64,000 nt of DNA. Origin: Psammoneis japonica. Its lineage: Eukaryota. A program made the position numbers and the translations under genes. Shown one piece after another: positions 9,017 through 64,000 of the stretch. The stretch lies in NCBI GenBank assembly GCA_008632985.1, contig QPGO01000045.1, positions 62,001-126,000 of the forward strand, read 5' to 3'. The first letter of the stretch is position 1. Each line of letters starts with the position of its first letter. The notes beneath the pieces are model-generated. The model saw nothing but the letters and a program-made list of their open reading frames with translations. It was not told where the DNA came from and searched no databases.

Positions 9017-9048
9017 TTGGAGAGTGGAGAGCTGCCGCAGATGAGAGG

Positions 9049-12470: not shown

Positions 12471-12474
12471 CCAA

Positions 12475-23560: not shown

Positions 23561-23859
23561 AGTGTGGCTCCGGTATGTATCTATCTCGCGCGATGTCGAT
23601 GGTCAGCTCAGAGCCAAAATTCAAGAATGACTCTGAAGACTGCATGGTGTTAAATAAGAATGTATCCATTCCACGATTACTGTACAATCAACTCCACGAT
23701 TAGACTTCAAGATCCGTCTATCTCACGCACGGTCTTCGTGTGTGCACAATCGACTCCACGACACCGGTGAGCAACTGGACACTTCAAATCAAAGAAGATC
23801 TGTCTCTCAAGGTCTGTGTTGCGCACTCTGCTCTCTACCGGTAGAGTAGAGAGGGCCCC

Positions 23860-26750: not shown

Positions 26751-27719
26751 ATGTACAGGATGCTGGATGATCGAAGAGTGCAGTATTATCCGTTACCGTA
26801 GAGAGAATGACTCTTTCTTTCCTATCAAGACTGGAATTAGATCAATTATGTCCATTTCACGGTTAAGCGCCTATCTTTTTCAATTGATCGCGCATGCCGG
26901 TTCACGCTCGGTCAAGAAGATGACCCCGGCCCCCGCCCGCCACATTGCATGTCCGTCATGATGTATGGACATTGCACTTGCGTTGTTCTCGTGTGCGTCT
27001 CCTGTTGATCAAGGGATCAAGGGAATCCCTTTTGTTGATGTTGAGCCAAAAGGCGAGGCAGAAGATGCTTTGAAGGCAATCACATGAGCCACACTGTCAG
27101 GCCTCACAATGTTGTCAGAGCACCACACCAAAGCTGTCATTGTGTGCTGTGCGATTTCATGGTTGGCGTTGTTTTTTGGACTCTTCAGGGGCCAGCATGT
27201 GGCCATCTCCCCATCAATGACTCCTCTGGCTCCTTTGGAGTGAGTCTGTCTGTTCTCACTGGAGTCTCAAAATGTGCTGCTGGACATGTCAAAGCAGAAC
27301 TCCAGCAGCAGTGGCCCACACTGCGCGGGTTAAAAGCAGGAGGGTGGAGACCACCAAAAAAGATGACTTTCGAGCAGGCATCACATTTGGCCCTGTCTTG
27401 CCAGCACACAGAAAGACACTTGGATGGCAGCGTGTGTTGTGCTGCCTGTTTGCAAGTTGAAAGTTGAAGCTGTTTGTGGCCACATTTTTCCCAGTGCAGT
27501 GTCTCAATCTGGTGCCAAGTGCCAAGGATGGCGGCAGCACCAACGTCAGCAACAACAGGTTGTGTGTGCTGCCAGCGGCTCTTGTGAAAACTGCCAACAA
27601 GAACAAAAACATCTGTTCCACAAACAATGCATTCCTTGGTGGATTCTTTTGTTGTGCAGTGGAAAACCCCTCGTGGGGTGGGGCATTTTTTTTCTCCACA
27701 AGAAGCAGCCCCTGCTGTG

Positions 27720-32600: not shown

Positions 32601-35600
32601 GGAGAGCAGCTGTCCTTGCCAGGCACCAGCATGGAGGAGGTGCCCATCACTTGTTGTGCAATGCACACATGTTGGGTGTGCTGTGGATCCAACCATTTTC
32701 AGTTGTCTGTTGTTCTTGTCTCCACTGCTTTTTCTGACTCTCTTTTGAGACTTGTCATTGATGAGAACAAAAAACAGCCAATGATGGTGGTGACTGGGGA
32801 TTTGCATCTGGTGGAGATGCTGCTGACAATCTCCCACAACACACGCAGATTGCATTGGAGGAAATGACCTTGATCATGATTTTCTCTGCCTGCAAAAAGC
32901 CTGGACTTTTCCTGGCTGACTCCAAGTTCCCAGATGTTGTCAAACAGTCATGCTGTGGGGACAGACATTCTGCTGTCAAGAAGATGCCATTTGATTGTTT
33001 GCCAGTGTGGCACAAGTGCCCCCTGTGATCTGATTTGCAGCTGCCCTTGCCAAAATGACTTGACTCTTCTCAATTGTCTTGCTCTGTTCAAGGATCATTT
33101 GCAAGTGTGCTGCATTGCAGCTGATGTTGATTCATCCTTGGATGAGTCATGGGAGCTTGACATCTTTGTCAGCAATGTGAAGCATGGTGACTGCCTTTGT
33201 CACAAGACCTCTGAAGCTTGTGAAGACAAGCAGAAGGCTCACAAGTTCAAGTCAAAGAAGATTGTTGAGACTTTGACAGCAGTCTTGAGTGAGCCTGACA
33301 GTCCTGCTGAGCACCCTGATGCTCCCAACTGTCTGAACCATCACATCTCAAATGAGAGCAACTGACCTCCACAAAACCCACACAGGAGAGTGAGCTCCAA
33401 CTAAAGCTCTTGCAAATGAGCCATTCATGTTTGACCCCCATCTCCAGAAGTTGTGGGTCCTTCTCCCTCTGTTGAGACAGACAACAAAGCTGTTCAAAGC
33501 CCTGGTCAATGAACTTGCCACCATGGAAATCCCTGATGATGACACTCCCCATGCTTCTCCATGGTCTTTGCACTGCAGGAACCATGCACCAAATCAAGCA
33601 GAATCCAATGGAGGCTGAGCACTGATGGTGCTTGGTCTGCAACAGCAAACATTGACATGCAGATTGTCCTTTCTGAACAATGCTGCCTTTCTTCATTCCC
33701 ATTTGATTTGATTTTGCAAGTTTGTTCAACATGAACAACACTCTCAGGATGCTGTTGCACTGCAAACAAACAATTGCTTGGAATTTCCTCCAGGCCATCA
33801 CTGACTTTGGATGTGCAATGCTGCCCAACTTTTGCCAACCCAAATCTGCAGAATGATTGTGCAGGGCAAATGTGAAAGAGGATCACCCTGATTCATCACC
33901 ACCTGCTGATGCTCCTCTTTCTCATCCATCCTTTGCCAATGACGTGCTCCACCAGGGTGCTTCAGATGCTCCTGATGTGGATGCCATTGCTGACAATGAT
34001 CCTGGGGAGGGCACAAGATGGCACAGAGGAGCCAACAAGGACTGCTCACATCTTCCATGCCTGACATTGGACATCTTGACTTTGAGTGTCTTGATGTGGT
34101 GGATGACTTGCCACATCTTGTGCCATTGAATTCTGTTTGCATTTCACCTGTTCTCTTGTTGTCAACTTCTCTTGCACTTTTTGACACCTTGGGTGCTCCA
34201 CCTGCTCCTGTCAATCACATTTTAAGTGACACATCCATTTGCCTGGCTCAGATTGACGCTGCAGCTTGGGTCTCTGGTGCTGGCCACTTGAACCTTGTCC
34301 ATCACCCATCACTGCCCACCTTTTGATGATGATCATCCATGTCCCGCTCAGATGTTGCCTGTGACAAAGGAGTGAGATGCAACTCCCCATGGACGTGGAT
34401 TCTTGCAAGTCCCTGCCAACAATGATCTTGGGTGCACATGTGTCCAAGCCTTCCAGCCACCACCCAAGCCTTCACTCTGCTCTCATTGATGAATGAGATT
34501 TTGCTCATGCACCCAGCATCTGTTCCCAAGATGCACATCTGAGGCACTTCAGAAGTCTCACAACATTTGCACTTGCTTGCATGTGGCAACTGGCAAATGT
34601 GACAAGCCACCTTGTGTGTCTGTTCCTGGTGTGCTGCAACATGGGAGAGCATTTGCCCAAGCATCGTTGCCACCTGCTGAGAAGTCTGCTCCAACTCAAT
34701 CATGTTTCCTGTTGCCAACAGTTGGAGCTGCTTTTGAAGATGGGTGACAATGTGCAGCTTCCTGCATTCATTCTTAACAGGAGCAGGACAACCAATGGCC
34801 CCACTTTTCAGAAGACCTCACTTTGTAATCCCTTGCTGCTGTGAAGATTGCCTCTGATCTTGAGGATGACACTTCACCAATTTTCCCCCTCAAGGTTGAA
34901 ACTGAGAAACTCTTGTGGCACCAACGTCTTGGTCATTCCAGTGGCCATTGTTTGCATCAGGCACACATGCATGTCAAAGAAATGCCAGTGTTTGCTGACG
35001 CAAATCCTGTCTTTGATGTTTGTCCCACTTCAATTCTTGCAAAACAGGCAAAGACTCCTGCAGGACCAAACTCCATTTGGTTGCTGCTGCCCAACCTCTT
35101 CAAGGTGGTTTGACCATTGATTGTGCTTTTGCTGGTCAGGACTCCAATGATTCCTCCCACACTGATGACTGCCTTGGTTTCAATGGTGAAACCAGCTGGA
35201 CTGCTGTGTGCAATCACCACTCTTGCATGTTCCACAGTGTTGCTTGGATCTCAAAAGCAAGTCCATTGAATTGCTTGTGCCACTGCCTCAAGAGACATTC
35301 TCTAAACTGTCATGATGGGCATGCACTTGTGGACCAGGGTGGCAAACTCCACAAGAACCCAAAGGTCTGGAATCCATTTCACAAGGAATTTTGACTGACA
35401 TTTGTCCCTCAGCTGCTGGTGCTTCCAATCAATGTGGACCTGAGGAACACTCACATTTGACTGTGGTGAATGCAACTTTTGATTGGAGCTGATGTTCCTG
35501 TCCATTTTTGGCCACACGCTTTTGATGATCCCTGTCTTTGGATCAAAAAATTCCATTCCTTTCAAGGATCAAGATGCAGCTCTGCTGATCACTGTTGCTG

Positions 35601-38492
35601 CTGGCAAAGTTGGTGATCTCAGTGCTCTTTGCGTGTTTGTTGGTTGTTGTGTTTGGGCTCAACCACCTGGAAAACATCCTGCCAACAAGATGTGTGGTCT
35701 TTCCAAAAAGGGTGCTTTCCTTGGTTTTCTTCCCAACGCTGCCATGAAGAACATCCTGTGGTGGGATCTGTCTGCTGACAAAGTCAAGATTGCAAAACAT
35801 GCCTTTGATGAAGGCATGAACAATGACCTGCCAATTGACAAACTTTCTCTGAATGTCATCCAACTCCAACATGCAGAGCAAGGCATGCCCCCCACCCCCA
35901 CCCTGCTGAGCCTTTGGACATGACTGTTCCTGAGTTTGCAACCTCATCTGGTCCTTTTGCACAGACACTTGCATGTGCTGTGAAATTTGTGTCTGCAGAT
36001 TGGACTTGTGGTCTTGAGTTTTTAACATGCAGCCTGATGGACAGAGCACATGCATTGGGTGTCAAGCCTGGCAGTCCAGCCTCTCAGCTCTTTTCTGCTT
36101 CTTGTGCCACATGCAACAAGATGCTGGGTGCCTGTTGCACTGAAGTTTTTTTTTCTTTGTGGATGCCAAGACTGCTCTGTGCAAAGTTTTTGATGAGTCT
36201 GTCTACCTTGTGAGATTGTCTGTGCACCAGAATGACAACTGCCATCAACCCAACTGCACTGTGCTTTGGAGGAATGCATGAAGCATGAATCAGGTCTCCC
36301 TGCTGAGGAAGCACATGTCCCTGAGATGGTGGCCTTGGATGATGTCCACCAGATTGCATTGACTCTTTTTCCTGACAATGATTTTTCTGAGGAAGCCACC
36401 CCAACTGACAAATTCTTCAACCACATCAATGCCATTTCATCTCAGGCTGTTGCTGGGGAGGGAGCAGCTCTTGATTGTTTCACATGTGCTTGTCTTGAAA
36501 AATTGACAGCTTGGCCAGAGTGGCAGGCTGGAGAATGAAGACAGCTGGACCAGCTTTGTCAACTTAGGATGTGTGGTCTCCAACTCAACCACAACCCCAT
36601 GGCACACATGTCATGCAAGCTCATTGGGGCTGCGCTCTCAAGCCCACTGGTCAATGCCATCCTCAACAATGTGGAGATGGCTCCAAGAAAGCTGTGCCAA
36701 CAATCCACTGTTTGACTTCAACAAGCTTTTCTTGTGCTGATCAATCCATCCAATGGCTGTTCTTTGCATTGAGTGCTGGTCTGACTTGTCATGTTTTTTG
36801 GGTGACACTTGTGATGCTTGTGCTCACTCACCTGTTCCTGCCAAAAGAGTCTTCATCTCTCTTGATGATGCACATCATGAGTGGCATTGAAATTGGTTTG
36901 GAAAAGATGTTGACCTGAGAAATGTCCTTCCTTTTCTCCATGCCCTTCAAGGTTGTCCTGAGGCAGGTGTGTTGTGGGAGAAGCACATCAGTTGTGCCTC
37001 ATCTGGTGTGAAGCTTTTGTTCTGCAATGCTGTGCATGACAAGTGTGTCTGCTCTGGGAAGTTCAATGGCATCAAGGTTTTTCTTCTCCATCAGATTGAT
37101 TGTTTTGCTCTTGCGTGTCCAACTGAAGATGTTGCTGTTGATGTTTTTGATTTTGTTGGTGAACTCTTCAGTGCCCCAATGAAGACACTCTTCTCTTCAA
37201 GTGCCTTGGACTGTGCACTGAATTCAATGGATTGAACATTGTCCAAAATGACAACTCAGTTGCTGTTTGCTGTTGCAGCTGCGCTGATTGTGTCTTCTTG
37301 CAGACTCATGGGTGGGATGCACCCAGCTCCAATGAGAGTGCTGTGGATTTCAAGGAGGCAACCCTGACATTGGTTGACTGCACTCCTGGGCTCTTTGCCA
37401 CTGCAGGTCCTGAGAAAGGCACTGATGCTCACAAAAAGATGGCTGCAAAGCATCAGCTCTAACATCAGTCTGTCCTTGGAGAGCTGATTTTTGCATGAAC
37501 TTGCTGCAATCTTGATGATGGCCACCCCATTGCAACCTTGTCCAAGTTCTGCAACATTGCTCCTGCTGACATGCACTGCAACTCTCTTTGCAGGGTTGCC
37601 AGGCACTTGCATTGCATGAAGGACTGGGGTCTCATGCACCAAAAAACCCACTGTGATCCTGGTCTTCCATCTCATGGTGCTCTTGAACGGCTTGAAGCTG
37701 ATCTCACATTTCCCAATTTCCCTGTTGCTTTGGATCCTTTCCAACTTCTTGGTTTTGTTGATGCAGCCCATGCAAACGCACACTCTGCCATCATTGGCCA
37801 ACCACTGGACATGCTCAGACTTTCAGCAGTTGCTGCTGTTGCATGTCGCTGTGCAGCTTGGACACTTGCCACTGTGCCAAGCTTGACAGAAGCTGACTTT
37901 CTTGCCAGTGTTGTGGGAACAAAGACAGCTCTGTGCTTGCACTCAGTTTGAAAGAACTCAGATTCCTGCAAAATGGTCTTGCCTCTCTCTTGATTGACAA
38001 CTTCTTGTTGGTGATCAAGATGATTGACCACCTTCTGGTTCCTGCTGAGTGGTCCACACATGTTGATGCCAGACAGTTTGCAATTCAAGACTGGCAGGAG
38101 GCAGGGGAAATTGTTGTTGGACACATTCCTGGTGTCATTGATGCTGTTGATGCACTCACCAAGGTGGTTGGGTGGGTGCTTCATGCCTGCCATGTTTGTT
38201 GATTGATGGGGCATTGTGGCTGATTTGGTTGGTTGATGTCTGCTTTGCTGCATCAACTGTTGTCAATTCTCTCCATGGACATTTTTTCTCTCTTGGTCTG
38301 TTTTGTCCCACTTCTTTCTTGGCTCTTATTTCTTCTTTGATTGGCAACCAGGATGCTCGTCAGGGGAGGGTGATGGCTGTTTGAGAGAACTGGATGTGCT
38401 GGATGCACACCCAGTGTGACTGCAGCACAGACATTGGCAGTCTCTCATCAAATCTCCAAACCACTTCCATCCACACCCATCTGTTCTCAACA
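32601..38492 (+). mobile_element. Degenerate Ty1/Copia LTR retrotransposon (protease ~34240, GAG-pre-integrase ~34910, integrase, RT ~36570-37300, RNase H ~37750-38200, PPT 38362-38370, putative 3' LTR 38371-38492)
   Basis: 'LWHQRLGH', 'DQGGKL', RT 'GDGSKKAVP' and 'LHQIDCFALAC'. RNase H 'GFVDAAHAN', 'TEADFLA', 'FAIQDWQEAGEI...HIPG..DAVDALTK..GWVLH'. Domain order is INT-RT-RH. Confidence 0.88.
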
Positions 38493-39935
38493 ACCCGCCT
38501 TTTTTCTGTTGACCAACAAAGTTCTTTGCTTTGCATGGAGAAAGCACTGCCTCAGTTGGTGCTCAAGGTCACAGAAAACAGTGTCCACATGTTGCAAGAT
38601 CTGACCTTCCCGTGCAAGATCCTTCCCGTGCAAGATCCAACATTTTTGCATCTGTGTGCATCAGAAGTTGTGACCAACATCCAACTCATCTCAACATTGA
38701 GCCACTCCATTCCACAACTTCAAATCCTGCATGGCCTCCTCTCTGCTTTGAGAGTTGACCACCATTTCTCTGTTTTTGCTGCAGCACTGGAAATTTCAAA
38801 AATGTGTCTTTCTCTTTGTTGCTGGCCAGTGCTCATTGAAGAAAAAAATCAAGGTGGCTTTTTGTTGTTGAACTGCACTCTGAATGTGACCATCTTTTGC
38901 TGTTGTGGTGTGGCTGGCTGCTGTGGTTGAAGACAAAAGAACACAACAAATCCCGTGTTGTGCACATTGTTTCCTTGTCCCCAGCAGCTGTCTCCCTGTT
39001 GGGCATTGCCAACAGATGGTGCCAATTCTGGCCAATCATTTTGTTCTTCTGCAGAAAGTGTGGGTTGGCCCACATCAGCTTTGCTTGTCAATGGTGTTGC
39101 AGCACCACAAACTCTGGATCTGCACTTTTTTGCCTCCCAGCAGGCGCTTCTGAAAAAGGAGTTGATCGTGCTCTTGGCTCCAATGAAGCAAGCAAATGTG
39201 CGGCCAATGCAGCCAAGAATCAGAAAAAAGAGAGATTGATTGCAGTGCTGTGGCAATCAGCAGGTTCCCCTGTTGTGAGAGCATCATAATTCTGGTCAAT
39301 TTGCCTGGCTGTTGGTGATTGCATTGATGGTGTTCACAGAGTTCTTGGGGTTAAAATGCACAAGTGCCAATCCACATGGTTGTCATGCCCTCTGCTGCCA
39401 CTGCCTTGGACTTGAGTGAAGAGACTGCCCTCTTTGACACCATTTGGGATTGTCTCTTTGCTGCTCTACAAACAATTGGACCACCGTCTGGTGCCTGTGC
39501 CAACTCCTCTGCTGCCCACAACAAACCTGCAAACCCAACCCTGCACTCACCCTCAAGTGCCCTGCTCATGCAGGCACCCAACTCAAGCCTGTTTCCTCTG
39601 CTGTTTCACCTCCAGCTCGCTGCTGCCCAGCCATCAATGCAGCTGTCCCAAACCTCCCCACCTCTCCAGCTCCTTGCTTGCCTGTCCCCAGCCTCAAATC
39701 TCAACCCTTTTGATGACACATGCACCATGCAGCAAGTGCCAAGCAGAAATTTGACGGGAACAACGAAACTCAACATGAGTCAACCCTCATTTTTTTAAAC
39801 CAAGCAGGCGTCCACCTCACTCTGTTTGCTGTTGATTGTCTGGGAGAGCATGAGGGCACTTTGCCTGCCCTGCTTTCTGTTTGGAGCCGCCGACCAAGAT
39901 GCTTTGGTTCCTTTCAACATCCAGCTGCCCGCGCG

Positions 39936-40077
39936 GCACTGCTTGCACCCACACCCAGTTCTTGCCCTCAGGGGTCTTCTCTGCTGCTGCTGCTGAGCAG
40001 CAGCAGGCACTGCTTGCACCCATGCCCAGTTCTTGCCCTCAGGGGTCTTCTCTGCTGCTGCTGCTGAGCAGCAGCAG
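39936..40077 (+). repeat. Tandem duplication, 2 x 71 bp, each ending in a (CTG)n-A-(GCA)n inverted motif
   Basis: Units 39936-40006 and 40007-40077 differ only at one CA/TG dinucleotide. Confidence 0.9.
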
Positions 40078-40911
40078 AGTGCCTCAACAACATGCCGCGC
40101 TTCTTGCTCTCACCCCACGCTGCCCTGCCAAGCCATCACCACCTCACATTGTTGGGGCCTCCAGAGGCTTGGCTTCATGGTCACCAAGTCTTTGGCTGAC
40201 CGGCTCGCCCATTGCTCCACCAAGCCACAGTCCCATCTCACCAACCGGTCCCCCAAACCAGACCCTTTCCCACCCACATGACTCTCACCGGCAGCAAGGT
40301 TGCGGTTACGGTTTTCACCCCTGTTCAGCGTCTGTCGTCTCCACCTCCCTCACCATTGAGTGACGTTAGTTGCCCGTCGCCCGTCGCGTCGTGAACTTTT
40401 CTCACCAGCAGCGCGAAGCGCGACACTTACTACAAATGCAAGACAATTGCGCGATTCACGTGCCCGAAGGTGGAATATCGTTGCCCGAAGCAACATTCTC
40501 CCTTCGCGCAGATGTCAATTCTACGTATGATGTGGTATCAAAATTTTCATTTTGGTCCCAGTCATTTCATCAAATGACCTTGTGGTACTCTCCTACGTGA
40601 TCTACGAAAATCGGAGCTTCGGGCTGGCTGGTACATTTTCTACAGGCTCTACGTGCGCGAAGCTCGAACTTCAACAATCACCCTGCCTTCGGGCACGTGA
40701 ATCGCGCAATTGTCTTGCAATTCGTAGTATCATAATGCTGTAAGGAGTATGAAATGGTTTCCGCAGCGCTCCGTATACCGCCGTGGAAGATGATTCTTCG
40801 TAGATTACTGGAATCCCAATACAGTAGACGAGAGACTTGCGAAACGTTGTGTGGCTTGTGTCAACCGTACAGTATAGGTATTCGACGTACCACATCTGAT
40901 CCATCGCCAAC

Positions 40912-52036: not shown

Positions 52037-53023
52037 CTAATCTTTCATAAAGAGTTGCGGGTTCCCGAGAACAAAGTAAAACATCAAGTCGGGCGAATCC
52101 TTGATTCTTCTTGTTGAGAGAAGATGCGTCCATACATACGGATGAACATTAGCTTCCGTCAAGAGTCTCCTGCCGGCCAAGTTTAATCTAGTGTAGAACA
52201 GCTTTTCCTGTTGGAGGGATGGGTTCAGCAGCGTGCCCAGAAGAAGAGATGTGACGACACTGTTTTGTCGAAGTCCATCTTGAACGAGTGCACGCTGGCC
52301 GTCCTTGCCAAATCGATTTTCGCACAACATGAGTTGCTTGAGGGTTCGATTGAACTTGAGATTGTTTGCCAGAACCTTGGCACCCTCATCGCCAATTCTA
52401 TTTCCGTTCAGAGCGAGTTCTGTCATCGACTTGTTTTGTGCAATACCCTCTGCAATGCCCGTGATACCCTCATCACCCACTTCACACCACGCCAAGTAAA
52501 ACACTTTGAGCGTTCTTGTTGCTTTGAAAGCATTTCCAAAAGCCACTGCACCGTCGTTTCCAATGGGATTATTGCTTAGGTACAACACTTCAAGACAAGA
52601 AGCGTCTCTTTCCAAGCTTCTGGCAAGGGCCATCGCACCGGCATTGTTAATCTCGTTATCGGTAAGAACAAGCTTCTTGAGTCCCGTCTGGCCCACCAGC
52701 GAGAGTGCATCAGTAGCAGCATCTTCATCTTCTCCGATGCGATTATCACGAAGCCCAACCTTCTCTACAGAAGTTCCATAATGTATGAGCGTATTGAATA
52801 AGGCAGTTGCACCCACAGCGCTAATGTCGTTGGAGCACAAAATCAGACTCTTGACGCGACTATTGGTTCTCAGGGCTCGCGATAGAGCAACCACGCCGTT
52901 GTCGCCCATTTTCTTCCCTGTGTCATAACCTGCCAACTTCAACTCTTCTGGCAAGGATGCATCATTCTGGGATATTCTCTCACACAAGCGGCTTAGCGAC
53001 GGAGAGATACGGGTGGACGCCAT
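52037..53023 (-). CDS. RNI-like leucine-rich repeat protein (NLRC3/LRRC74-like)
   Basis: 28-aa repeats of the form 'LxxLxLxxNxIGxxGAxALA' throughout. Confidence 0.88.
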   Translation of the reverse strand: MASTRISPSLSRLCERISQNDASLPEELKLAGYDTGKKMGDNGVVALSRALRTNSRVKSLILCSNDISAVGATALFNTLIHYGTSVEKVGLRDNRIGEDEDAATDALSLVGQTGLKKLVLTDNEINNAGAMALARSLERDASCLEVLYLSNNPIGNDGAVAFGNAFKATRTLKVFYLAWCEVGDEGITGIAEGIAQNKSMTELALNGNRIGDEGAKVLANNLKFNRTLKQLMLCENRFGKDGQRALVQDGLRQNSVVTSLLLGTLLNPSLQQEKLFYTRLNLAGRRLLTEANVHPYVWTHLLSTRRIKDSPDLMFYFVLGNPQLFMKD

Positions 53024-53289
53024 TGTGCACCGCCGCTGCGGTAAAGGCTCGAGCGTTTTCTGGTTGTTGTTGTTTTTTTTTTTTGCAGAATGGCTTTTCG
53101 CGATATCATACGTCTGTCACGAGCGAGTTCCAGTCCCGAGTAATGGCACGTCATGTTTGCTGCAAGGGAAAACGCTGGTGCATTATCCCTTGTTTGTTGG
53201 CTCCATCGCTGCTCTACTAGAGTGCCTACATCGAGAGGAGGTGCCTCTTTGATGTAATGTTTAGCTCTTGTGGGATAAAAGCTAGCATC

Positions 53290-56200
53290 ACCTTTGAGTG
53301 AGGACACAGCAAGGATCCCGCATCCCATGTCATCTTGCTTGGAGCAAGAAAACAGATGATCGATGTTGTTGTTCTTCTGCATCTTGATCTCTTGGCCCCT
53401 GTTGTTGCTGTTGTCATTGCAACCTTTGACACAGCAGTGATGCTTCCTCTTCTTAGTTGGTCAAGCATTGGTCATGTTGTTGGGGTGGTGGATGTGTCAG
53501 AGAGTGCCTGCCATCACCATTTTGGTTGGTTGTCATTTTGGGCAAGTCAGCACGGTTCGCTGCTGTTGTGCGCTCTGACTGGCTTGACCCACCACGCTTG
53601 CATCCATTGTTTTTGAGAAGCAATGACAGCTTGTTGGTGGTCTCCCAAACATGCTTGCAGATGGTTAACATCTTGAGCAGTGACACTTTCTGTTGCTCAA
53701 TGCCGTCAAAGTTTGAGGCCGATTGGATCTTGTTTGACCCCATCATCATCCTGCTGGGCTGCCAAGCTTGCAAACCCTTCCTTCCTGAACACAGGTGAGA
53801 TTTTGTGTCCTCAACGATCCCCACATGTTTGAACTCCTCCTTTGTTGCCATGCCTTTGGGTGTGCTTGGCATTTTGTCTGCTGCTTCTGTGCCCCACAAT
53901 GTCAGTTCTTGGTGTTGCATTGTCTGCATCTGCCACACTGCTTCCTCTGCACCACCCTTGTCAGTTGGCACTGCATTGTCTCAAGCACTCCCATTGACAG
54001 CTGCACCTGCCATTTTCTCCACACTGCCCAAGTTGGTCAGCATCACACCATCTTTAGTGCTCCCATCAAGTGCCCCATGTTTGAGCACTCCTCCCATCAA
54101 GAGCTGAATCTTGAGCTCTCCTGTCCAGAGCTGTGCTCCATGTGTTTTGCTCAGCTTTCACAAGTGGACAAGCACATTTTACTTTGTTGCAAAACAAAAG
54201 ACCCAGATCCCATGGCTTTGGTGGCTCTCCTGGTGACATCTGTGTTCACCCGGCAGATTCGCCACAATTCTCCAGCAATTCAAGAAAGTTGTGTCAGACT
54301 CAGGCACAGGGAGGTGCTCACCAGAAGCTTGAATCAGCTGGATGAGAATGTCATCTCACAGGGTGTCATTTCTATCACAGTCACAATGGCAGCTCCTCTC
54401 TCTTTTCTGGTTCTTTGTCAGAGATCAAAAAGCACCTGCACAGCCATTCCTTGAAACAGCAACTGGCTCAGATGCCTTGGCTCTGTCATGCCATGAGTGC
54501 AAATTGCTCTGTCTTCCCCAAGCTTTGACACTTCATTGTTTTTGCACATTGCCATGCATTCTGCTGCTGGAAATTCATCTGTTGTGAAGGATGAAGCACA
54601 GGTGGTTTTTGTCAATGCAAGCATCTTGTGGCAAATGATGGCACACACTCTGTCACTGTGTTTTGCAATGGTCAGCTTTGCCACATCTGGAGTTCCTTCA
54701 TCTGTCACATGCCAGAGGCCCCAGCTGCACAAGTGCTGTCCAGCATGAACATGCACCACATTTTCTGCAAAATTTGTGACATCAGTCAGGAGCACATGTT
54801 TGTAAAAGTGCTTTTCTCACCTTTTCCACTCCCACTCACACAAGTCAGTGAAGCAAGTGCATGTGCAACTTCTGCAACAACTTTCATTTGAACATTGGAT
54901 TCACAATGATGTGTTCCATCTCAGACACTTGAACTTGCTTTGTCCATTGAAAGTGAGGCCATGACAGACACCATGCAAAGATGATGTCAAAAGTGATGTG
55001 AACTTGATGCTTCTGACAACCCGCTCAAAAATGTGCAGGGGTTGCCACATTTTCTGCAGTCTTGTGTGGACGCAACACTTCCATGTGCATTGCACTGGTT
55101 TGAGGCTGCTGGCCCATGTTGTTGCACATAAATTCATGCATCTCTCTGATGTGTCTTTGTCATGCAATGAACCAGACATGGACTCATGCGTGCAAGGGAC
55201 CCACAAGAGATGATCTCTTGCCAAGTCCAGATCCAACTCCTCTTTGCATCTGACAGAAATGGAAGAGTTTGGCTTTACAAACCATGCTTTTGCCAACTCC
55301 TTTAGCAGCAAAAAATGAACAAGGCAGAGAGGAGTTGCATCCCTCTGCAGCAGGCCCATCAACCACACTTGTGTCCTCATCTGGCAGACATCTCCAAATG
55401 TTTTCAAATGTCAGTGGCCACTTGTGAAGACGTCCGGTCTTGGTCTTTTACACAGCATTGCATGTGTCAGGCACAGGACAGAATCTTTGTTTTTGATGGC
55501 ACTGCCACCCAATTTGCTGATCTCAGTTGCCAAAGCCTCGTGCAGTTCCAGATCTGGCAGGTTTTTGATGCTTTGCCAGAAGGTCTGATGCAGCTGCTTT
55601 CAGGCCACAACCTGTGAGCCCCCTGGGATGTGCTCCACAACTGAGCATCAGTGCTGCCAACAACACACATGTTTTTGGGTGTTGTGCCCCACTGAGCACT
55701 GGGTGATTGGGAATGTGTTCTTTGTTTGTTTGAGAAAATGGGGGCACCTCCCCAGTTTTGAAAGAGGACTTTGTCAAGAAGCTCTCTCAACGCCAGGTTT
55801 TTGACCTGTGTGCATTCTAAACAAATGAATCTGCAGCTCACTGCATGTGGCAATTTTGATGTTTTTCACCATCACATCAGCAAGTTCTCCACTCAATTTT
55901 TTGCTTCGTCCAGCAGCATGCATGACAAAGTCAGAGTTGCCTGAGACCACAAATTGTGCATCCCCGTCTGCTGTCATCTTGTGGCAGTTCATGGATCTGC
56001 TTGAGTTGATCTGTGTTGACGATGGTGCTCCCCTTTCCAGCTGAATCACGTTCTTCAACATTTTTTTCCGGCTTTGCAGAGAAGTCAGATGGCAGTTGAT
56101 GATGCTTCGCGCAGCTCTCATGACTCTGAATCTTCTTTTGTGTCTCACTGATTCTGGTGGCATGCTCAATCATGTTGCATTGTTGTGCAAGGAGTGACCA

Positions 56201-56610
56201 CAATTCTGCTCTCACAGCAATGAGTTCAATGTTCATCTTCTTGACATCAGCCATGTCAATCAATGGCTCATGGCGGGCACGAACATTGTGCACTGTGCTG
56301 CTGCGCCACACATCTGAGGCAAGCAACATGTGAGGCTTGCAGCAGGAAACAACAATCACAAACTCTCACATGTAAAAAAAAGAGCTTTTTTGTTGACACT
56401 GCTGCCAGACAAGACCTCCAAGGTCATGCGCAATCAAGAGTGTGCCTTGAAAAACGACGATCTCTTCCCACGTCATGCCTGTGGTAAAAAGAGAAGAGCG
56501 AGGACTCCAGAAGTTTGGAGAAACAGGTCACAACTCAGCCATGTCTGAGCTGAAGCATGACCAATCGTGCACGCATTTGCAGCCAAGAAGGTTGGCATCA
56601 ATGACTCCTT
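53290..56610 (-). mobile_element. Hypermutated element with remnants of an XPG/Exo1-type nuclease and a possible SWIM-like Cys/His motif
   Basis: Minus strand: 'TQADP' ... 'FVVSGNSDFVMH' (XPG-I-like, ~55920-56010) and 'LMLSCGAHPRGLTGCGLKAA' (H3TH-like, ~55590-55660). 'ECMAMCK...ICTHG' lies at ~54490-54570. Confidence 0.5.
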
Positions 56611-56837
56611 TTAATTGTGAAGGGAGCTAGAATGTGCTTTGAAGTCGACACTTGCATTGACGGTGGCGCTTGCTGCGCGTTGCCGGTTATTGCCGTGTGC
56701 CGTTCGTCGACGGTCATTGCAGCAGACCGCTCGTCTACATACTTTTCTACGTAATTTTTGTACCGGTGTGCCCCGCCCCCGCCCCGCCGCCCCCACTCTC
56801 AAATCTTCTGTGAACGCGAGAACACCTTCATCACATC

Positions 56838-58779: not shown

Positions 58780-59769
58780 AGAGTCAGCATCAACGGCAAT
58801 AACGATGGTGTTTCATATATTTTAGTATTTACTGATGGAATCTCATCAGATATATTTTAAAAATTACATTCAATGCACTAACAAATAACAATTGAATTCA
58901 ATCTATCTGATAATCATCAGAAGATGTATCAGGTTGGTGTCATCGCTTAAAAGGTAAGTAGCCATTTGACAACCAATGCGGTGCTGTACAACGAACATCT
59001 GGCCTAGGCTGAAGTTCCACATCCTCTCTCAAACCCCTTGCAAATAAACTTGAGAGCAGCACACAACCCACCTGCATGTGGGGCAAGGTCACCATTCCAC
59101 TTCATTTCATGGCATTGATGTCTGCGTGTGCCGGCAACACAATGCCAGAAGAAGAAGAGCCAGCCATCATCTGTGCCTGGATCTTGGCATTCACTTTCGT
59201 CTTGTCCCTCGGCAAGTCAAGTTTGTGCTTGTGGATGACAAATCTCACAATTGTCAATGAAGGTTGGAAGCAGTTTGGATCAAATGATTGTCAAGGACAC
59301 TGAAAATGACATGTCTTTGCTTCCCATTTGGTGAGGACTGAGCTTTCAGTGTGGGCTGGGCACCAGAGCCGTCTTGTGTCACAACAGGTTTGATGATGAA
59401 GGCTGTGAAAGGAGCACTCAAAGAACCTTTGGGGGACAGAACCCAAAACTTAACTAGCCCACAACTTGCAAAGAACAACAGTTGGTTGGTTCCTGACTGT
59501 CACATCCATTGAAGTTCTTTTGGTGATGTCTGACAAGGGATGCCTTTTTGCTCGGGACAAAAAGCGCAAAAATCTCTCAAAATTTGTCAAACGCACAGTT
59601 GCTCATGCACCAAACTTGCCCCATCAACTCACAATCATCTTCTTCTTAATGCTTGGATGCTCAAACTCAGTGCCTGTGCTGTGATGGATGCAGTGTCTTG
59701 TTGAGAAGACAAAGGATTGAATGGAGAGCGATGCCCCAGGCACACTTGTGCCAAGTTCTGAGAGAACTG

Positions 59770-60650
59770 TGCAGTGCCCTCTGCAAAATGCCCATGATGC
59801 CATCATCACCCACTTCACACCACACCAAGCAAAAAACTTTGTTGAGCACTCTTGCTTGCAGCTTTGAAAGCATTTCCAAAAGCCACTGCACTGTGGGGTT
59901 GCTGCTTGGGTGCAACACTTCAAGACAAGCAATGTTTCTTTCCAAGCTTCTGGTGGCAAGGGCCATTGCACTGGCATTGTTGTCAATTTTTTCATTGTCA
60001 GGGAGAACAAGCTTCTTGAGTCTCGTCTGGCCCACCAGCAAGAGTGTGAGAGTGCACCACCACCAGCATTTTTTATCTCATCCAGTGCAATTGTCATGAA
60101 GCCCAAGAACCTTCTCTGCAGCAGTTTTGAAATGGGTGAGTGTGTTGAATGAGTCAGTGTCACACCCACAGCACTGGTGTTGTTGGAGCACAAAATCAGA
60201 CTCTTGATGTGACTTTGTGTTTTCAGGGCTTGCAAAAGGGCAACCATGCCATTGTTGCCCATCTTCTTGCCCATGTGATGTCCTGCCAACTTCAGCTCTT
60301 CTGGCAAGCATGTGCCTTTTTGGGACAATCTCTCACACAAGTGGCTCAGCAACAGAGAGATGTGGGTGGACGTCATTGTGCACTGGTGTGATGGCTGTGC
60401 ATTTTCTTTTGTTTGCAGAGTGTTTTAATGATCCATCCATCACAATTCCAGTCCCAAGTGCATCAAGTTTGCCAGCTCAATCACAACTCTGGAGTGCCCA
60501 CATTGAGAGAAGGTGCCTCTTTGATGTTGCAGTCAGCTCTTGTGGGGCAAAAGCTGGTGTCACCTGCAAGTGATGACACAACAAGGATCCTGTGGCATCT
60601 TGGAAAATGTGGATGATCAATGTTGTGCATCTTGAGATCTCAGTCCTGCT
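59770..60650 (-). pseudogene. Hypermutated partial copy of the LRR gene (52037-53023) and its upstream region
   Basis: Aligns with ~52440-53400 (e.g. GCTTTGAAAGCATTTCCAAAAGCCACTGCA, TTGGAGCACAAAATCAGACTCTTGA). It carries frameshifts and CG/TA->TG/CA changes. Confidence 0.92.
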
Positions 60651-60849
60651 GAATGACTTGAGCCCTTCTGTGCTCCTTTTCTGGCTGCCTTCTCCAGCCA
60701 ACCAAATTTTGGACAAAAGCACTGTTGCACTGACTGCCAGTGCTCAAAATGGGGCAGTGTTCACTTCTAAAAGCAGTTCTAAAACCAACCATGGAAACTG
60801 CAGCCAGAGCTTGGTTCATGTTCATTGACCAAAAAACAAATGCATGTTT

Positions 60850-61110
60850 TTTTAATTGAAGCTGGGCCAATGTGCTGCCAGCTTTCCTTCTTGAACATCA
60901 ACGGCGACCATTTGACAATCGCTTGCATCAGTGCAGATGGTGTGGAAAGGGAGGTTGTGAGTGGGACAGTTCAACAGAGTTTTGGCTGACATTGCAGCCT
61001 TCATTTCATCCAGCGCTTGTTGCTCACATGAACACACACAGTTCTTTCAGACTCTCACAACTGCTCATCTGGGAATCCAGGCCCACCAAGGAAGTGGCTC
61101 AAATGCTCCA
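60850..61110 (-). mobile_element. Degenerate Gypsy RT-connection/RNase H fragment
   Basis: 'EQQALDEMKAAMSAKTLLNCPTHNLPFHTICTDASDCQMVAV..QEGK' matches the consensus 'LxYPDFxxPFxIYTDASDYQLGAV' with Tyr->Cys changes. Confidence 0.75.
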
Positions 61111-61949
61111 CTCGCGATTCAAGCTGCACAATGTGCGTGTCACCAAATCCTTCTCTTTCTTTTCCCATTTCTTTTCCTTTTCTGCTCATTTGTTCACACA
61201 TGCCACTGCTCTTGCTCTCAATTCTCTTTTTCCCCATTTTGTCAATTTGTTTCTCATCCAGCTCTGATGGACGGCTGCAGCCACAGTGCAAGCCAAAGCT
61301 CAGACAAGAGTGTTGATTTAACAAAACATTGTGTCAGCACACCAAAGGTGGGGAGTCGAGGTGCTTCAGTGATCACCTTTCAGCAATTTCCCATTCCCAA
61401 TGGCTGCTTTCATCTGGTGTCCAATTGGTTGTGATGTGTTGCAAACGGCGTGCAGGCACCAGAACACTCCAAACAGCATCCAATGACTTTCAAAGGCTTC
61501 GGGATTTCACAACAATTGCTGTGACAACAAAAACAAAACATGCCAAATTTGCGCTGTCTTGGTCATTTTTGGTTTGGATGCCATTGACTCCTGGCCAATC
61601 AATTGGCCATTTTTCTGTTTCAAGGTCATTTTTTTAAACTCATTTGAATGACTGTCGATTTTGTCTTTCAATTGTTTGCCTTCATCTGTGAATGCAATGT
61701 GTCACTTCTTTTCCATTGAGCAATGGATTTTTGGATCTTGTGCTTTTTGCACAAATGATCGCTTGCTTTCAAACCAGGGGTCATGCACAAACAACTCAAC
61801 CCCCTTTGCAAGGGCCATCACATGATGAAACCCAGATTGTTGCCACATTGTTGAAAATCCATGTCTGACAATTAAAGTCTTCAGCTGCAGTGCCTTGCAC
61901 GCACAGTCCTTTGCAGCAGGAGCAGCCAGAGAGGAGCCTTCTTGGAGCC

Positions 61950-63100
61950 CTCTCTTGTGCACCTGAAGTGAAGAAGGAACTCATTCAATGCCAATGACAT
62001 GCCCTTTGTTTTCTTGTCATCAAACTTCTTCCTAAGACAAAGCCCCTTTCTTGTTGCAACTCTGGACAAAACCACATGAACCCAGTTGTCTCTGCAGTCA
62101 AAGTTGTCAACAAAACCAGGCTCTCAATTGTCGTGCCCTGGAGCTTGTGTGCAGCTGTTGTGTTGTTGCACAAAACTGGGAACTGGGTCATCTGAATCCT
62201 CTGACTGATTCTTGGAGTTTTTTTGTCAATGAAACCCATGACAGGAGCAGGAAAGTTGATGATGCATGACTCTCTCCTTTTGGCCACAAGAAACAGACCC
62301 CCCATGCCTTCTTCTCATGCCTCAAGACAATGGGGGCTCAACTTGTGAAACACAGGCTGACCTCACCCAGCAACCAACAATCCTCATCAACTCCAAATTT
62401 TTCAAAGAAATTCAAAGAAACACCTTCCTTCTTCAGCTCAACTCCATCAAAAAAGCCAACAGTGCAATTGGCCTCCTTTTCTCAACATCTTGGCCATGGC
62501 AGAGCTTGAGAAGTGGGCTCACATGTCTGGTTTCATTGCCAGCTTGCTTGATGTGGGCATCTGGACAGACTGCAAACAAAATGTCCTTGGACAGCTCATC
62601 TTGAAAATCCACATGCTTGTGCCTTGTGTTCAACTTTTTCCACTTGAGGTTGCTTGTTCCTTGGGTGACAATGGCGCAGGTTGGAGGAGGCTGTGCAAGA
62701 GTTTTTGAGTGTGTTCCCTCTGGCACCTTCTTAAAAATGCCATCATTGGCAGCATTCCTGTCAAGATCAGTGGCAACAGCATGGGTTGCATTGCTTGGGA
62801 TGTTGCTTTCCTTTGGCCCAGTGTCACCAGGCCTGCTTCCAAACATTGCTTGGTCTTGCTGATGGTGCTTTTGATGATGTGCCACTGCAAGCTGCACTTG
62901 GCATTGCAGAGGGAAATGTCGAGGGCTCCACCAAAGATGGTTTCATCAGATGGCTTTGCTTCAATGGATGGCTTCCCCTTTTGTTCCAACTCTGGTCATT
63001 GTCTCATTTGCCGCTCTCCTCTGTTTGGACTTTCCATTGTGCAAATTCTGAGTGCATTCTTCACAGAAAGCATTTCTTGATGGTGAGTCCTCCCATGGTG
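61950..63100 (-). mobile_element. Degenerate PIF1-type helicase, probably Helitron-like
   Basis: 'MTQFPVLCNN..AHKLQGTT' and 'VLSRVATRKGL' (PIF1 motifs V/VI), with 'IFGG' upstream. The sequence is hypermutated. Confidence 0.7.
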
Positions 63101-63559
63101 ATCCCTCATCCCCGATGACGACGGTGCCATGAATGTCACCACACTCAATTCAAATGGCCTGCAAGACAACCTCAAGCTTTGCTTGAGGAGGGAAAGACAA
63201 AAACAAAGCATGTTTGTCAGAGAGAGATGGAGACAGGGAGAATTTGACAAGAGAAGCATGGACAAATGCAACAGCAGCACAAGGAAATTGGCTCAACAGG
63301 TGGAAAGGACAATGGTTTTTTGGGTCGATTTCAAACTCAACACCAAATCTGAGCTGTGATTTGTCATTTGACACCTGACAGAGCATCGAGCATCTCCCAA
63401 CGTCACTCTACAAACAGAAGCGACACACGAGATGTGCGATGAGGACATCAAAAAATGCAACAACAAAAAGAAATGAGTGGCACAAGACCAACACTCGCTG
63501 CTTGCAAGCCAACATCCAAACAACAAAAAAAAAACAGCAACCAGAAACTGACGGCTTTG

Positions 63560-63940
63560 CTGAGTTGGTGTTCCCCAAGCAAGTGTGCATTTTGGTCTGA
63601 CCAAATTGGCATTTTGGTCAAACCAAAATGCTTTTGCTGACCAAATTGCCAGACTGACCAAATCAATTTGGTTGACCAAATTGACATTTGCAAAATCTTG
63701 AGCAAATTCATTTTCATGCACATTTCCACACAAACAATGCTGATGCAGCTTCTAAAAAATTTGCGCAGCATTTTGACATGCGCATTTTCCAAGGAAGATT
63801 TCCACCAAAAGCACACCAGATTCTGCCAACCAAAATGACATTTTCAGGAAGCAAAATCATTTTGGTTGAGAGCATCAATTTCATCAACAAATTTGCACCG
63901 ACCAAAATGGCAATTTGGGCAGACCAAAGTGCACATTCAG
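63560..63940. repeat. Array of short GACCAAA(A/T)T / (A/T)TTTGGT motifs in both orientations
   Basis: Roughly ten copies are visible between 63590 and 63930. Confidence 0.7.
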
Positions 63941-64000
63941 GAAACACCACCTGAGCACCATTGATTCTTTCCAAGTCCCTCTTCACATCACTCAGTTTTC

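Follow-up and report, generated by a model that had tools for sequence, protein, structure and literature searches.

A truncated LRR gene copy in a chromosomal domain of probable regional CpG and TpA conversion to TpG and CpA

In sum, our analysis of a 64-kb window (the whole stretch of 64,000 nucleotides) points toward a regional, context-specific hypermutation that turns CpG and TpA into TpG or CpA, and a broken copy of an LRR gene near the right end of the window probably lies in a chromosomal domain shaped by it. In such domains, nearly all CpG and all TpA would have become TpG or CpA by a single transition. The process is confined to discrete, sharp-edged tracts without a recognizable gene, which carry retroelement relics, a multi-copy repeat, and the pseudogene, and it left the genes and their non-coding spacers untouched. 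The features on which the argument rests are listed in Table 1.

Table 1. Coordinates of the gene/copy pair, the depleted tracts, and the internal controls in the window
Feature	Position	Strand	Basis and details
LRR gene (RNI-type, 328 aa), unmutated comparator	52037..53023	-	intact ORF; LRR_6 match; normal CG/TA density
5' flank of the LRR gene, counterpart in copy	53024..53322	-	local alignment; RY-BLAST
Pseudogene, converted first ~590 bp of the LRR CDS	59768..60383	-	alignment; indels; in-frame TGA
Converted copy of the LRR gene 5' flank	60384..60594	-	local alignment and RY-BLAST
Tract holding the LRR copy	58804..64000	.	HMM: CG-depleted 58804-64000, TA-depleted 59046-64000
Tract starting ~210 bp upstream of the LRR ATG	53233..56611	.	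CG-depleted 53233-56428, TA-depleted 53284-56611
Largest depleted block (13.4 kb), decayed retroelement traces	26873..40306	.	HMM and Pfam
Depleted tract at window start	1..3197	.	HMM: 10 TA, 21 CG in 3197 bp
Depleted tract	11638..12730	.	HMM
Depleted tract, right part (21198-21937) with TA loss only	19701..21937	.	HMM
Depleted tract, left part (23848-24261) with TA loss only	23848..25639	.	HMM
Isolated TA-loss segment, 1 TA left, 39 CG kept	10298..11269	.	HMM and 250-bp bins
Unconverted duplicated non-coding segment	22532..23559	+	partner 25704-26728; divergence similar to LRR pair
Direct repeat flanking the RVT_1 trace	27793..27974	+	partner 32420-32600; BLAST-defined core

The product of the LRR gene matches the Pfam family LRR_6 with an E value of 3e-26 (89.8 bits; cut-off, 23.4). 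Local alignment pairs gene positions 52437-53300 with positions 59768-60572 of the copy, and a BLAST search with bases collapsed to purines and pyrimidines (RY-BLAST) widens the pair to 52436-53042/59767-60395 and 53192-53322/60467-60594, with 93% agreement in the second block, which lies in the flank. The homology therefore continues past the ATG for ~300 bp of upstream DNA and ends at 53322/60594, and since it extends that far, the duplication took place at the level of DNA and not by way of a retrocopy. Neither target-site duplications, a poly(A) tail, nor homology limits at transcript ends were seen at the copy, no poly(A) tract was seen in the sequence at either limit of homology, and the copy does not have the features of a processed (retro)pseudogene (transcript-limited homology, poly(A), no promoter). 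The 3' end of the CDS (the last ~400 bp) is missing, 15 codons of the reading frame contain indels, codon 98 is an in-frame TGA, and the longest frame (250 aa) matched no Pfam family, LRR families included. With ~590 bp of CDS and ~300 bp of promoter-side flank, the copy represents a truncated and dead duplicate made at the DNA level.

In the CDS alignment (gene 52437-53023, copy 59768-60383), 483 of 579 columns agree, and the differences comprise 75 transitions and 21 transversions. Not one of the 23 TA of the gene is kept; 13 read TG in the copy, 1 reads TG with a 3-bp insertion, and the others read CA (4), GG (2), AA (2), or TT (1). The 30 CG became TG in 14 and CA in 12 cases, one was split by an 8-bp insertion, one was deleted, and only two, at 60024 and 60371, survive. 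These counts agree with the initial annotation, a hand alignment in which about 23 TpA had left no survivor and about 18 read TG or CA (17-18 in the formal count), and its figure of about 27 of 29 CpG converted was essentially right (26 of 30). Counted by context and per strand, TA sites indeed mutate far more often than other A sites, as it had held: A>G occurred at 19 of 44 TpA versus 16 of 235 other sites (Fisher P = 9e-9). C>T occurred at 26 of 57 CpG versus 14 of 226 other sites (P = 1e-11), with 5 of 90 at CpA. The long stretches free of CG and TA that had been described as identical are found again in 7 identical runs of at least 15 bp (147 bp), which contain 1 CG and no TA, and the additional A>G changes before T exist but are modest (9/51 versus 7/184; P = 0.002, post hoc). 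The CG changes are split evenly between the strands (14 versus 12), and those of TA unevenly (A>G, 15 on the plus and 4 on the minus strand), although the latter numbers are too small to interpret. Over its full length (59768-60594), the copy has 2 CG and 2 TA, compared to 46 CG and 35 TA in the matching 886 bp of the gene. Since the pair is saturated and carries a background divergence of ~10% (46 changes at 461 non-target sites), the spectrum of changes can be read from it, but rates cannot.

The direction of change, from a gene-like ancestor to the copy, had been deduced from the intact ORF of the gene and is supported in addition by the broken state of the copy, by composition, and by an outgroup protein. 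With P0001, a single distant sequence with 50% identity to the LRR gene product, as outgroup, TG/CA appears to be mostly the derived state: at 55 non-synonymous codon differences, P0001 sides with the gene in 26, with the copy in 7, and with neither in 22. At codons altered solely by a TA-type step, it agrees with the gene in 5 cases and with the copy in none, and at those altered solely by a CG-type step, the numbers are 5 and 1, so that the pure CG/TA codons together favor the gene by 10 to 1. It might be, as already suggested from the few transversions, that the copy descends from a close paralog, with an ancestor unlike today's gene or with more members in the family. Such an ancestry fits three observations: the copy agrees with the outgroup in 7 codons, gene and copy show 8 TG<->CA double differences, and the match of one run contig to the copy begins only at 59975. 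A close paralog of the LRR protein was not found in the protein database, in which the best match has 50% identity. In any case, with ~10% background, 7 outgroup-like codons, and 8 TG<->CA doubles, the copy falls short of a clean "after" state.

The copy is part of a much larger phenomenon. Segmentation with a two-state HMM, applied to CG and TA separately, assigned 30,982 bp (8 segments) to TA-depleted and 27,946 bp to CG-depleted DNA, with 27,627 bp in both, or ~31 of the 64 kb. From outside to inside the tracts, TA drops from 37.9 to 2.7 and CG from 59.2 to 6.9 per kb, and TG plus CA rises from 141 to 225 per kb. Since this gain (~84) equals the loss of CG plus TA (~87), the tracts arose by conversion and not from DNA of different origin. 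The GC content is 47.6% in the tracts and 48.2% outside, and the observed/expected ratio of CG in the tracts is 0.02 to 0.2. The longest run without CG or TA in the window measures 674 bp, compared to at most 93 bp in 50 shuffles, which, together with the 2 CG and 2 TA of the copy, excludes chance. By the depletion criterion for 500-bp windows, 74 of 255 are depleted. The same criterion found no depleted and no TA-only windows at 80 metagenome loci with relatives of the tRNA-guanine transglycosylase (TGT) of the window, 12 of them eukaryote-like (53 to 71% identity) and the rest bacterial; because the eukaryote-like contigs are short (1.7 to 14 kb) and gene-centered, this result validates the criterion and is silent on tracts in relatives. 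Those homologs of the TGT that carry a name come from diatoms.

All recognizable genes of the window lie in the normal blocks. The tract with the LRR copy (5.2 kb) begins just past a hexokinase stop codon at 58779, and its part from 61.3 to 64 kb is a multi-copy repeat, with a depth in sequencing run X1 of 341 to 737 over 61343-64000 compared to ~60 elsewhere. The largest block contains traces of RVT_1 (30065-30682; E = 8e-7) and gag_pre-integrs (34829-35110; E = 1e-5). Out of 108 tract ORFs, 103 had no Pfam match, and a viral domain was not found among them; matches to D8C_UMOD, GDNF, and a DCAF4 beta-propeller were below the cut-offs and were taken as chance. Scans of the window with Rfam and for tRNAs gave no match, and the asymmetry between TG and CA by strand parallels local A/T skew within the tracts, with no clear signal. 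Six non-coding spacers within the normal blocks have 82 to 127 CG plus TA per kb, and since these spacers are unaltered, coding constraint is not the cause of the difference.

The losses of TA and CG are not fully congruent. Loss of TA only extends over 3,355 bp, compared to 319 bp for loss of CG only, and five 250-bp bins have at most 1 TA but at least 8 CG, with no bin showing the reverse. The occurrence of TA loss without CG loss over 3.4 kb reveals two separable components, of which the TpA step reaches further and is more complete. A Pfam search with the ORFs of the TA-only segments gave nothing. The TpA step also has a footprint wider than the dinucleotide: TTAA has mostly escaped, and ATAC/GTAT, GTAC, and ATAT have been eliminated. 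Among 85 residual TA in the tracts, 25 are part of TTAA, compared to an expectation of 8.0% for fresh creation (P = 7e-9) or 4.3% for normal DNA (P = 1e-14), and only 2 belong to ATAC, GTAC, and ATAT together.

How could two such components act together? The tracts may be silenced chromatin, in which the CpG step would be deamination of 5-methylcytosine and the TpA step the work of an enzyme that deaminates adenine in DNA to hypoxanthine, a base read as G. A candidate for the latter, by analogy to what has been proposed for Bigelowiella natans, might be an ADAT/TadA-like enzyme. LTR retrotransposons of the diatom Phaeodactylum tricornutum are described as CpG methylated in the available part of the report (PMC2806351). 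The combined steps would amount to genome defense or decay, in which coding capacity is destroyed and the GC content stays unchanged. However, TpA is palindromic, and therefore, A:T->G:C changes cannot separate adenine deamination from a modification of thymine.

A thymine modification is at the center of an alternative that we regard as unlikely, in which a TET/JBP-type dioxygenase, i.e., one enzyme family, oxidizes thymine in TpA as well as 5-methylcytosine in CpG, and mispairing or mis-repair leads to T>C and C>T. Oxidized thymine mispairs with G. A single targeting system would fit the large overlap of the two losses (27,627 bp of 30,982 and 27,946 bp). Furthermore, TET/JBP homologs of dinoflagellates, which also belong to SAR, produce 5-hydroxymethyluracil from thymidine in DNA, enriched in repeats, and inhibition of its formation activates transposons, according to the accessible portion of PMC11572971. 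That is a SAR system which chemically modifies thymine of repeats in DNA and silences them. However, the same portion of PMC11572971 treats 5-hydroxymethyluracil as an epigenetic mark and describes no mutational conversion, and the TA-only segments, one of them isolated (10298-11269), argue that the two halves can uncouple.

Passive decay would do without any targeting: with a genome-wide bias of CG and TA toward TG and CA, the tracts would be old, unconstrained DNA at equilibrium, and the normal blocks would be kept by selection or transcription-coupled repair. This is improbable, although it would account for the lack of Pfam matches in 103 of 108 tract ORFs and for the location of all recognizable genes in normal blocks. 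The spacers within those blocks have kept their CG and TA, and the switch between tract and normal DNA is abrupt at 250-bp resolution. A duplicated non-coding segment (22532-23559/25704-26728) has diverged by 16% (818 of 970 columns identical) with a flat spectrum of 73 transitions and 79 transversions and has retained 35 of 50 CG and 27 of 47 TA. Transcription-coupled repair may nevertheless shield whole multi-gene blocks, promoters included, a variant that is not separable by inspection of the DNA. Methylation-driven CpG decay as in vertebrates and plants resembles the CpG step in its symmetric change of CG to TG and CA (14 versus 12) and its location in non-genic, transposable element-bearing DNA. 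However, it leaves the loss of TpA, the TA-only segments, and the sparing of TTAA unexplained, and the depletion of CG is much deeper here.

The same control pair bears on a homology-triggered mutation of duplicated DNA like RIP in fungi. Its attraction is obvious, as the LRR copy is a duplicate, the DNA from 61.3 to 64 kb is multi-copy, and conversion has affected both direct repeats, at 27.8 and 32.4 kb. Moreover, fungal RIP (PMC2621366) likewise inactivates duplicated and mobile sequences in the DNA itself through heavy, context-specific transitions. But it changes C to T mostly in CpA, creates TpA, lowers the GC content, and hits both copies, none of which is seen here: the contexts are CpG and TpA, TA is lost rather than made, and the GC content does not drop. 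Since both the control pair and the parent gene (46 CG and 35 TA in 886 bp) are unconverted, the process is not triggered by duplication, and a RIP-like mechanism is very unlikely. The direct repeats indicate what happens instead. Over 180 columns, they differ by 11 transversions and 34 transitions, 20 of which form 10 TG<->CA double differences, and therefore, each copy was converted independently; the process acts on DNA after duplication, separately for each copy.

Editing of a transcript, ADAR-like (A>I at UA) together with C>U, followed by reverse transcription and insertion, would agree with the retroelement traces within the tracts and with the 5' U preference of ADAR (cited in the available text of bioRxiv 10.64898/2026.01.13.699255), which matches TpA. 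Yet it is extremely unlikely, given that the copy reaches ~300 bp past the ATG into the 5' flank, both strands were changed (CG, 14 TG and 12 CA; TA, 13 TG and 4 CA), and the conversion continues over kilobases of unrelated flanking DNA. Animal APOBEC/ADAR editing (PMC4866542) likewise leaves a neighbor-specific transition signature in dead copies of elements. Those deaminases work on intermediates of the element's own replication, either single-stranded DNA or double-stranded RNA, whereas here whole chromosomal domains are affected on both strands, and a gene fragment with its promoter is among the targets. That base-calling or polishing errors at modified bases mimic conversion has a next to negligible probability: some differences between window and run X1 do fall at CG/TA<->TG/CA sites, but X1 contigs reproduce the tracts (not fully independently, since the window may have been assembled from that sample), indels and transversions also separate the copy from the gene, and the choice of TG or CA varies between repeat copies.

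X1 and X2 are two runs of one sample, and X1 may be the source sample of the window assembly. X1 contigs (word depth ~60) agree with the tracts over 7,383 bp except at 20 letters. Among the differences listed, which are all but 21 of the total, 22 between window and X1 lie in tracts; in 6, the window has CG/TA and the run TG/CA, 3 are the reverse, and 1 is a TG<->CA swap. The residual CG of the copy at 60371 is one of the 6, and residual CG/TA make up only ~2.6% of the bases in the tracts. The conversion is possibly still active, but the differences could also be alleles, strain differences, or assembly errors.

Run X2 is cDNA-like and skips four GT..AG stretches, and a spliced contig covers the LRR gene up to 53054. 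The homology to the copy extends beyond this end, which is a weak hint of duplication at the DNA level, as contigs do not mark transcript ends. X2 contigs also end near tract edges (53054 and 58878), again a weak hint only, and the run has no cover over 53339-56673 and 59342-63343, which is no evidence of silence.

The closest known counterpart to the conversion described here is found in B. natans, whose mutation accumulation lines showed de novo TpA->TpG/CpA hypermutation, with ADAT2 as a candidate, according to the available text of a preprint (Mettrop et al., bioRxiv 10.64898/2026.01.13.699255, 2026). As far as that text goes, the two cases share a TpA-restricted change of A:T to G:C that gives TpG/CpA and discrete regions with depletion of TpA and enrichment of CpA/TpG, and the depleted CDS of B. 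natans are enriched in reverse transcriptase and transposase domains, as a tract here has a reverse transcriptase trace. However, B. natans is a rhizarian and its targets are integrated NCLDV and virophage DNA, whereas a fragment of a host gene, retroelement relics, and a repeat were hit in the diatom-like genome; viral regions in B. natans retain 3.3% TpA of dinucleotides, compared to 2.7 TA per kb here, in tracts that make up roughly half of the window. The CpG class is not elevated in B. natans, with the main text of the preprint silent on CpG and flanking context, whereas CpG is as converted as TpA here, and the sparing of TTAA is new relative to the available part of that report. The CpG class and the viral targets argue that the two systems may be unrelated.

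A more speculative extension of our model, which we consider possible but doubtful, would place both under an old, SAR-wide defense system shared by diatom-like stramenopiles and Bigelowiella. It would mark silent or foreign chromatin domains and enzymatically rewrite TpA and methylated CpG, the two self-complementary pyrimidine-purine steps, to TpG/CpA in double-stranded DNA, with a tetranucleotide footprint that spares TTAA. If true, a DNA editor for A:T->G:C, or a modifier of thymine, would exist in nature and be targeted to domains, and genes and transposons would be erased at constant GC content and, hence, escape the customary scans for unusual composition.

Hardly any natural case of targeted A:T->G:C mutation in chromosomal DNA is known; in the openly accessible literature, we found one report, the TA-only case of B. 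natans, and for diatoms and other stramenopiles none that describes conversion of TpA or of CpG and TpA jointly. Its TpA signature, now also seen in a diatom-like genome, would thereby extend to a second, ecologically dominant lineage, in which it approaches saturation over about half of the 64 kb and is coupled to an equally deep loss of CpG. The LRR pair, the unconverted control, and the independently converted repeats form an internal experiment that separates the process from RIP and neutral decay, and the TTAA-sparing footprint offers a concrete biochemical lead toward the enzyme. A natural editor of adenine or thymine in double-stranded DNA would be of interest for base-editing work. For the genomes themselves, the consequences are twofold. 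TAA and TAG stop codons vanish from converted DNA, and therefore, long open frames arise at normal GC content. Furthermore, converted DNA loses its homology, and transposons and pseudogenes in such genomes would be missed or mis-annotated as genes.

The intact LRR_6 gene and its degraded partial copy align locally over 52437-53300 and 59768-60572, and BLAST in a collapsed purine/pyrimidine alphabet gave 89.7% identity over 52436-53042/59767-60395 (score 367 versus 52 for the best reversed-sequence control) as well as a second block at 53192-53322/60467-60594. The coding part aligns in 579 columns, of which 483 are identical, 75 are transitions and 21 are transversions. Not one of the 23 TA sites of the gene is kept in the copy; they read TG (13), TG with a 3-bp insertion (1), CA (4), GG (2), AA (2) or TT (1), which bears out the initial annotation (about 23 sites, none surviving, about 18 as TG or CA). 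The 30 CG became TG (14) or CA (12), two were kept, one was split by an insertion, and one was deleted, in line with the annotated loss of about 27 of 29. Counted per strand, A>G affected 19/44 A in TpA versus 16/235 elsewhere (p 9e-9), and C>T affected 26/57 C in CpG versus 14/226 elsewhere (p 1e-11); TA sites are thus hit above other A sites. Outside TpA, A>G was modestly more frequent before T, in line with the annotation (9/51 versus 7/184, p 0.002, post hoc). Changes at non-target sites numbered 46 of 461 (30 transitions and 16 transversions). Between 59768-60383 and 52437-53023, TA changes are uneven between the strands (A>G: plus 15, minus 4; small numbers) and CG changes are even (14 versus 12).

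The polarity of these changes was read from P0001, the top homolog of the LRR protein in the database (50% identity over 99% of the query); a closer paralog was not found in the protein database search. The 195 aligned codons comprise 102 identical, 23 synonymous, 15 indel-containing and 55 non-synonymous ones, and at the last, P0001 agrees with the gene 26 times, with the copy 7 times, and with neither 22 times. At codons changed solely by a TA-type step it sides with the gene 5:0, and at those changed solely by a CG-type step 5:1. Together with an in-frame TGA at codon 98 of the copy, this supports the proposed direction from gene to copy. The copy lies 7.3 kb from the gene in the same orientation and is a DNA-level segmental duplicate, since it includes ~300 bp of 5′ flank from the gene but not the final ~400 bp of coding sequence; the flank rules out a retrocopy. 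The seven codons shared by copy and P0001, eight TG<->CA double differences between gene and copy, and a run contig that matches the copy only from 59975 onward suggest that the copy's ancestor was not identical to the present gene or that more family members exist, in agreement with the earlier caveat of a close paralog.

The copy exemplifies a mosaic of depleted and normal blocks that alternate along the window. In 1-kb counts, normal blocks have observed/expected ratios near 1 for CG and near 0.5 for TA; in depleted blocks (tracts) the ratios are 0.02-0.2 for CG, 0.00-0.07 for TA, and 1.6-2.3 for TG and CA. Two-state models assigned 30,982 bp as TA depleted, 27,946 bp as CG depleted and 27,627 bp as both. 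Tract DNA has 2.7 TA and 6.9 CG per kb where normal DNA has 37.9 and 59.2, a summed loss of ~87; TG+CA gains ~84, going from 141 to 225. Since loss and gain match and GC content is alike (47.6% in tracts, 48.2% elsewhere), the tracts look like the usual local DNA with CG and TA converted one for one. The longest run without CG or TA is 674 bp, whereas 50 shuffles gave none above 93 bp, and a strict criterion classed 74 of 255 500-bp windows as depleted, but none in 80 metagenome loci.

Positions of genes, depleted segments and the duplicated control pair in the window
Feature	Position	Strand	Source
MRG	3536-4561		Pfam
Calcineurin-like phosphatase	6092-6832		Pfam
Queuine tRNA-ribosyltransferase (TGT)	6963-8438	minus	Pfam
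FAD monooxygenase	17906-19354		Pfam
OTU	21592-22296		Pfam
SulP/STAS/cNMP transporter	42561-45460	minus	Pfam
DUSP-USP ubiquitin hydrolase	46301-51938		Pfam
LRR_6 protein	52037-53023	minus	Pfam
Hexokinase	56838-58779		Pfam
Depleted segment	1-3197		Two-state models
TA-depleted, CG-keeping segment, isolated, 972 bp	10298-11269		Two-state models
Depleted segment	11638-12730		Two-state models
Depleted segment	19701-21937		Two-state models
Depleted segment	23848-25639		Two-state models
Depleted segment	26873-40306		Two-state models
Depleted segment	53233-56611		Two-state models
Depleted segment, contains copy	58804-64000		Two-state models
Unconverted duplicated pair, ~1 kb, non-coding, with indels (control)	22532-23559 / 25704-26728		

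The TA step is separable from the CG step, wider and more complete, because TA-only loss covers 3,355 bp versus 319 bp of CG-only loss, five 250-bp bins have at most one TA and at least eight CG with none showing the opposite pattern, and the isolated TA-depleted segment holds 1 TA and 39 CG. Among the residual TA of the tracts, 25/85 (29%) lie in TTAA, versus 8.0% expected if fresh from TG/CA (p 7e-9) and 4.3% if they resembled normal DNA (p 1e-14); ATAC/GTAT, GTAC and ATAT make up 2/85 versus ~32% of TA in normal DNA. TTAA stands at about half its expected number (26 sites, e.g. 398, 27330, 34222, 60425 and 62731), other TA contexts at 0-19%. TTAA could survive because of the enzyme's specificity or because a mark or protein shields it, or the sites could stem from new insertions. 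The bias of residual CG is milder, with GCGC retained most and TCG-containing contexts least. Two observations suggest a weaker, secondary A>G activity at ApT. Tracts have more GC dinucleotides than normal DNA (70 versus 57 per kb) and fewer AT (57 versus 63), and some double changes turn AT into GC, both in the LRR pair and at window positions 56009-56010 compared with run X1.

The window is nuclear DNA of a eukaryote, and every gene recognisable by Pfam across its 64 kb lies in normal blocks. The named TGT homologs among the best 120 are diatoms (Chaetoceros, Seminavis, Cyclotella, Thalassiosira, Skeletonema, Epithemia, Mayamaea) at 57-68% identity, except one insect entry; other matches among these reach 69-74%. 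The host is therefore diatom-like and not Bigelowiella. Contigs of the cDNA-like run X2 skip four GT..AG stretches (49110-49197, 50106-50194, 51188-51283 and 57816-57920), and these joints show that the USP and hexokinase genes have short introns (86-103 nt). A single X2 contig spans the USP gene and the convergent LRR gene to 53054; the parent gene is therefore present in cDNA-like data. Two intact ORFs of normal composition, 14833-17694 (+, 953 aa) and 40912-42552 (+, 546 aa), matched no Pfam family; the latter contains ~180-bp tandem direct repeats (41141-41676). Further tandem direct repeats occur at 8866-9018 (~51-bp unit) and 39935-40078 (71-bp unit, just inside the margin of the largest tract where TA alone is lost). 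A Cation_ATPase_C domain stands alone at 9326-9943 (+, E 1e-12), adjoining the TA-only segment; no N-terminal P-type ATPase part was recognised in the nearby ORFs scanned, and the domain could belong to a broken gene piece or to a gene divided by introns.

ORFs of at least 90 aa are common in tracts because TAA and TAG stops are lost, and 103 of 108 had no Pfam match; the informative matches are traces of RVT_1 at 30065-30682 (E 8e-7) and of gag_pre-integrs at 34829-35110 (E 1e-5). The depth of run X1, from the same sample as X2, is ~60 elsewhere and 341-737 over 61343-64000, which therefore is a multi-copy repeat. Many X1 contigs there are 90-95% alike, which indicates a repeat family, wholly converted; if each copy took TG or CA independently, differences of ~5-10% between copies would be expected. 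Direct repeats flanking the RT trace (27793-27974/32420-32600) differ by 34 transitions, 20 of which form 10 TG<->CA double differences, as predicted for separately resolved ancestral CG or TA. Hence, conversion comes after duplication, independently in each copy. Being duplicated does not in itself provoke conversion, as shown by the untouched parent gene and the unconverted control pair (818/970 identical, 73 transitions, 79 transversions; CG kept 35/50, TA 27/47). Both control copies lie in short islands of normal composition between depleted tracts, share 94% identity in purine/pyrimidine space over 23016-23492/26185-26661, and gave no Rfam, tRNA or Pfam signal. Coding constraint as the cause of normal blocks is contradicted by six non-coding spacers within them that have 82-127 CG+TA per kb.

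Over 7,383 bp, contigs of X1, which may be the source sample, reproduce the tracts except for 20 differing letters. Among 22 in-tract differences listed, six have CG/TA in the window and TG/CA in X1 (including the copy's residual CG at 60371), three the reverse, and two neighbouring positions together form a TG<->CA swap. Residual CG/TA makes up only ~2.6% of tract bases (segmentation counts). The pattern is compatible with recent or ongoing conversion, but the change may run either way, and alleles or assembly errors would give the same picture.

In sum, CpG and TpA are converted to TpG/CpA regionally, at the DNA level and after duplication, in two separable components with a TTAA-sparing footprint, and genes and their spacers are spared. 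This description is close to certain, and we regard regional hypermutation as its probable cause. In our model, the tracts would be silenced chromatin in which CpG is lost by deamination of 5-methylcytosine and TpA by enzymatic deamination of adenine in DNA. ADAT enzymes normally act on tRNA A34, directly 3′ of the near-invariant U33, which would rationalise a TpA preference. The adenine step follows the hypothesis of a preprint on Bigelowiella natans (bioRxiv 10.64898/2026.01.13.699255), whose authors measured de novo TpA->TpG/CpA mutation in two stretches of integrated viral DNA at ~6e-7 per site and generation and proposed an ADAT2 homolog. CpG methylation is carried by LTR retrotransposons of P. 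tricornutum (PMC2806351). The main chemical rival, a TET/JBP enzyme that oxidises thymine and 5-methylcytosine, is made plausible by the 5hmU marking of dinoflagellate transposons (PMC11572971); since TpA is its own complement, sequence alone cannot separate this oxidation from adenine deamination. RIP is ruled out by the wrong contexts, the destruction of TA, the unchanged GC content, the intact parent and the untouched control pair.

The initial annotation is thus confirmed in its observation and supported in its interpretation. The openly readable literature yielded no description of such tracts from diatoms or other stramenopiles, and within it the B. natans preprint is the only precedent found. 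Both systems share the defining TpA signature and regional confinement. However, the targets are viral in B. natans and non-viral here, and CpG, converted here, is not involved in the B. natans description; CpG and flanking context go unmentioned in the preprint's main text. What this window adds is a second lineage, a signature that joins CG with TA, conversion close to saturation, targets that are not viral and a footprint at the tetranucleotide level.
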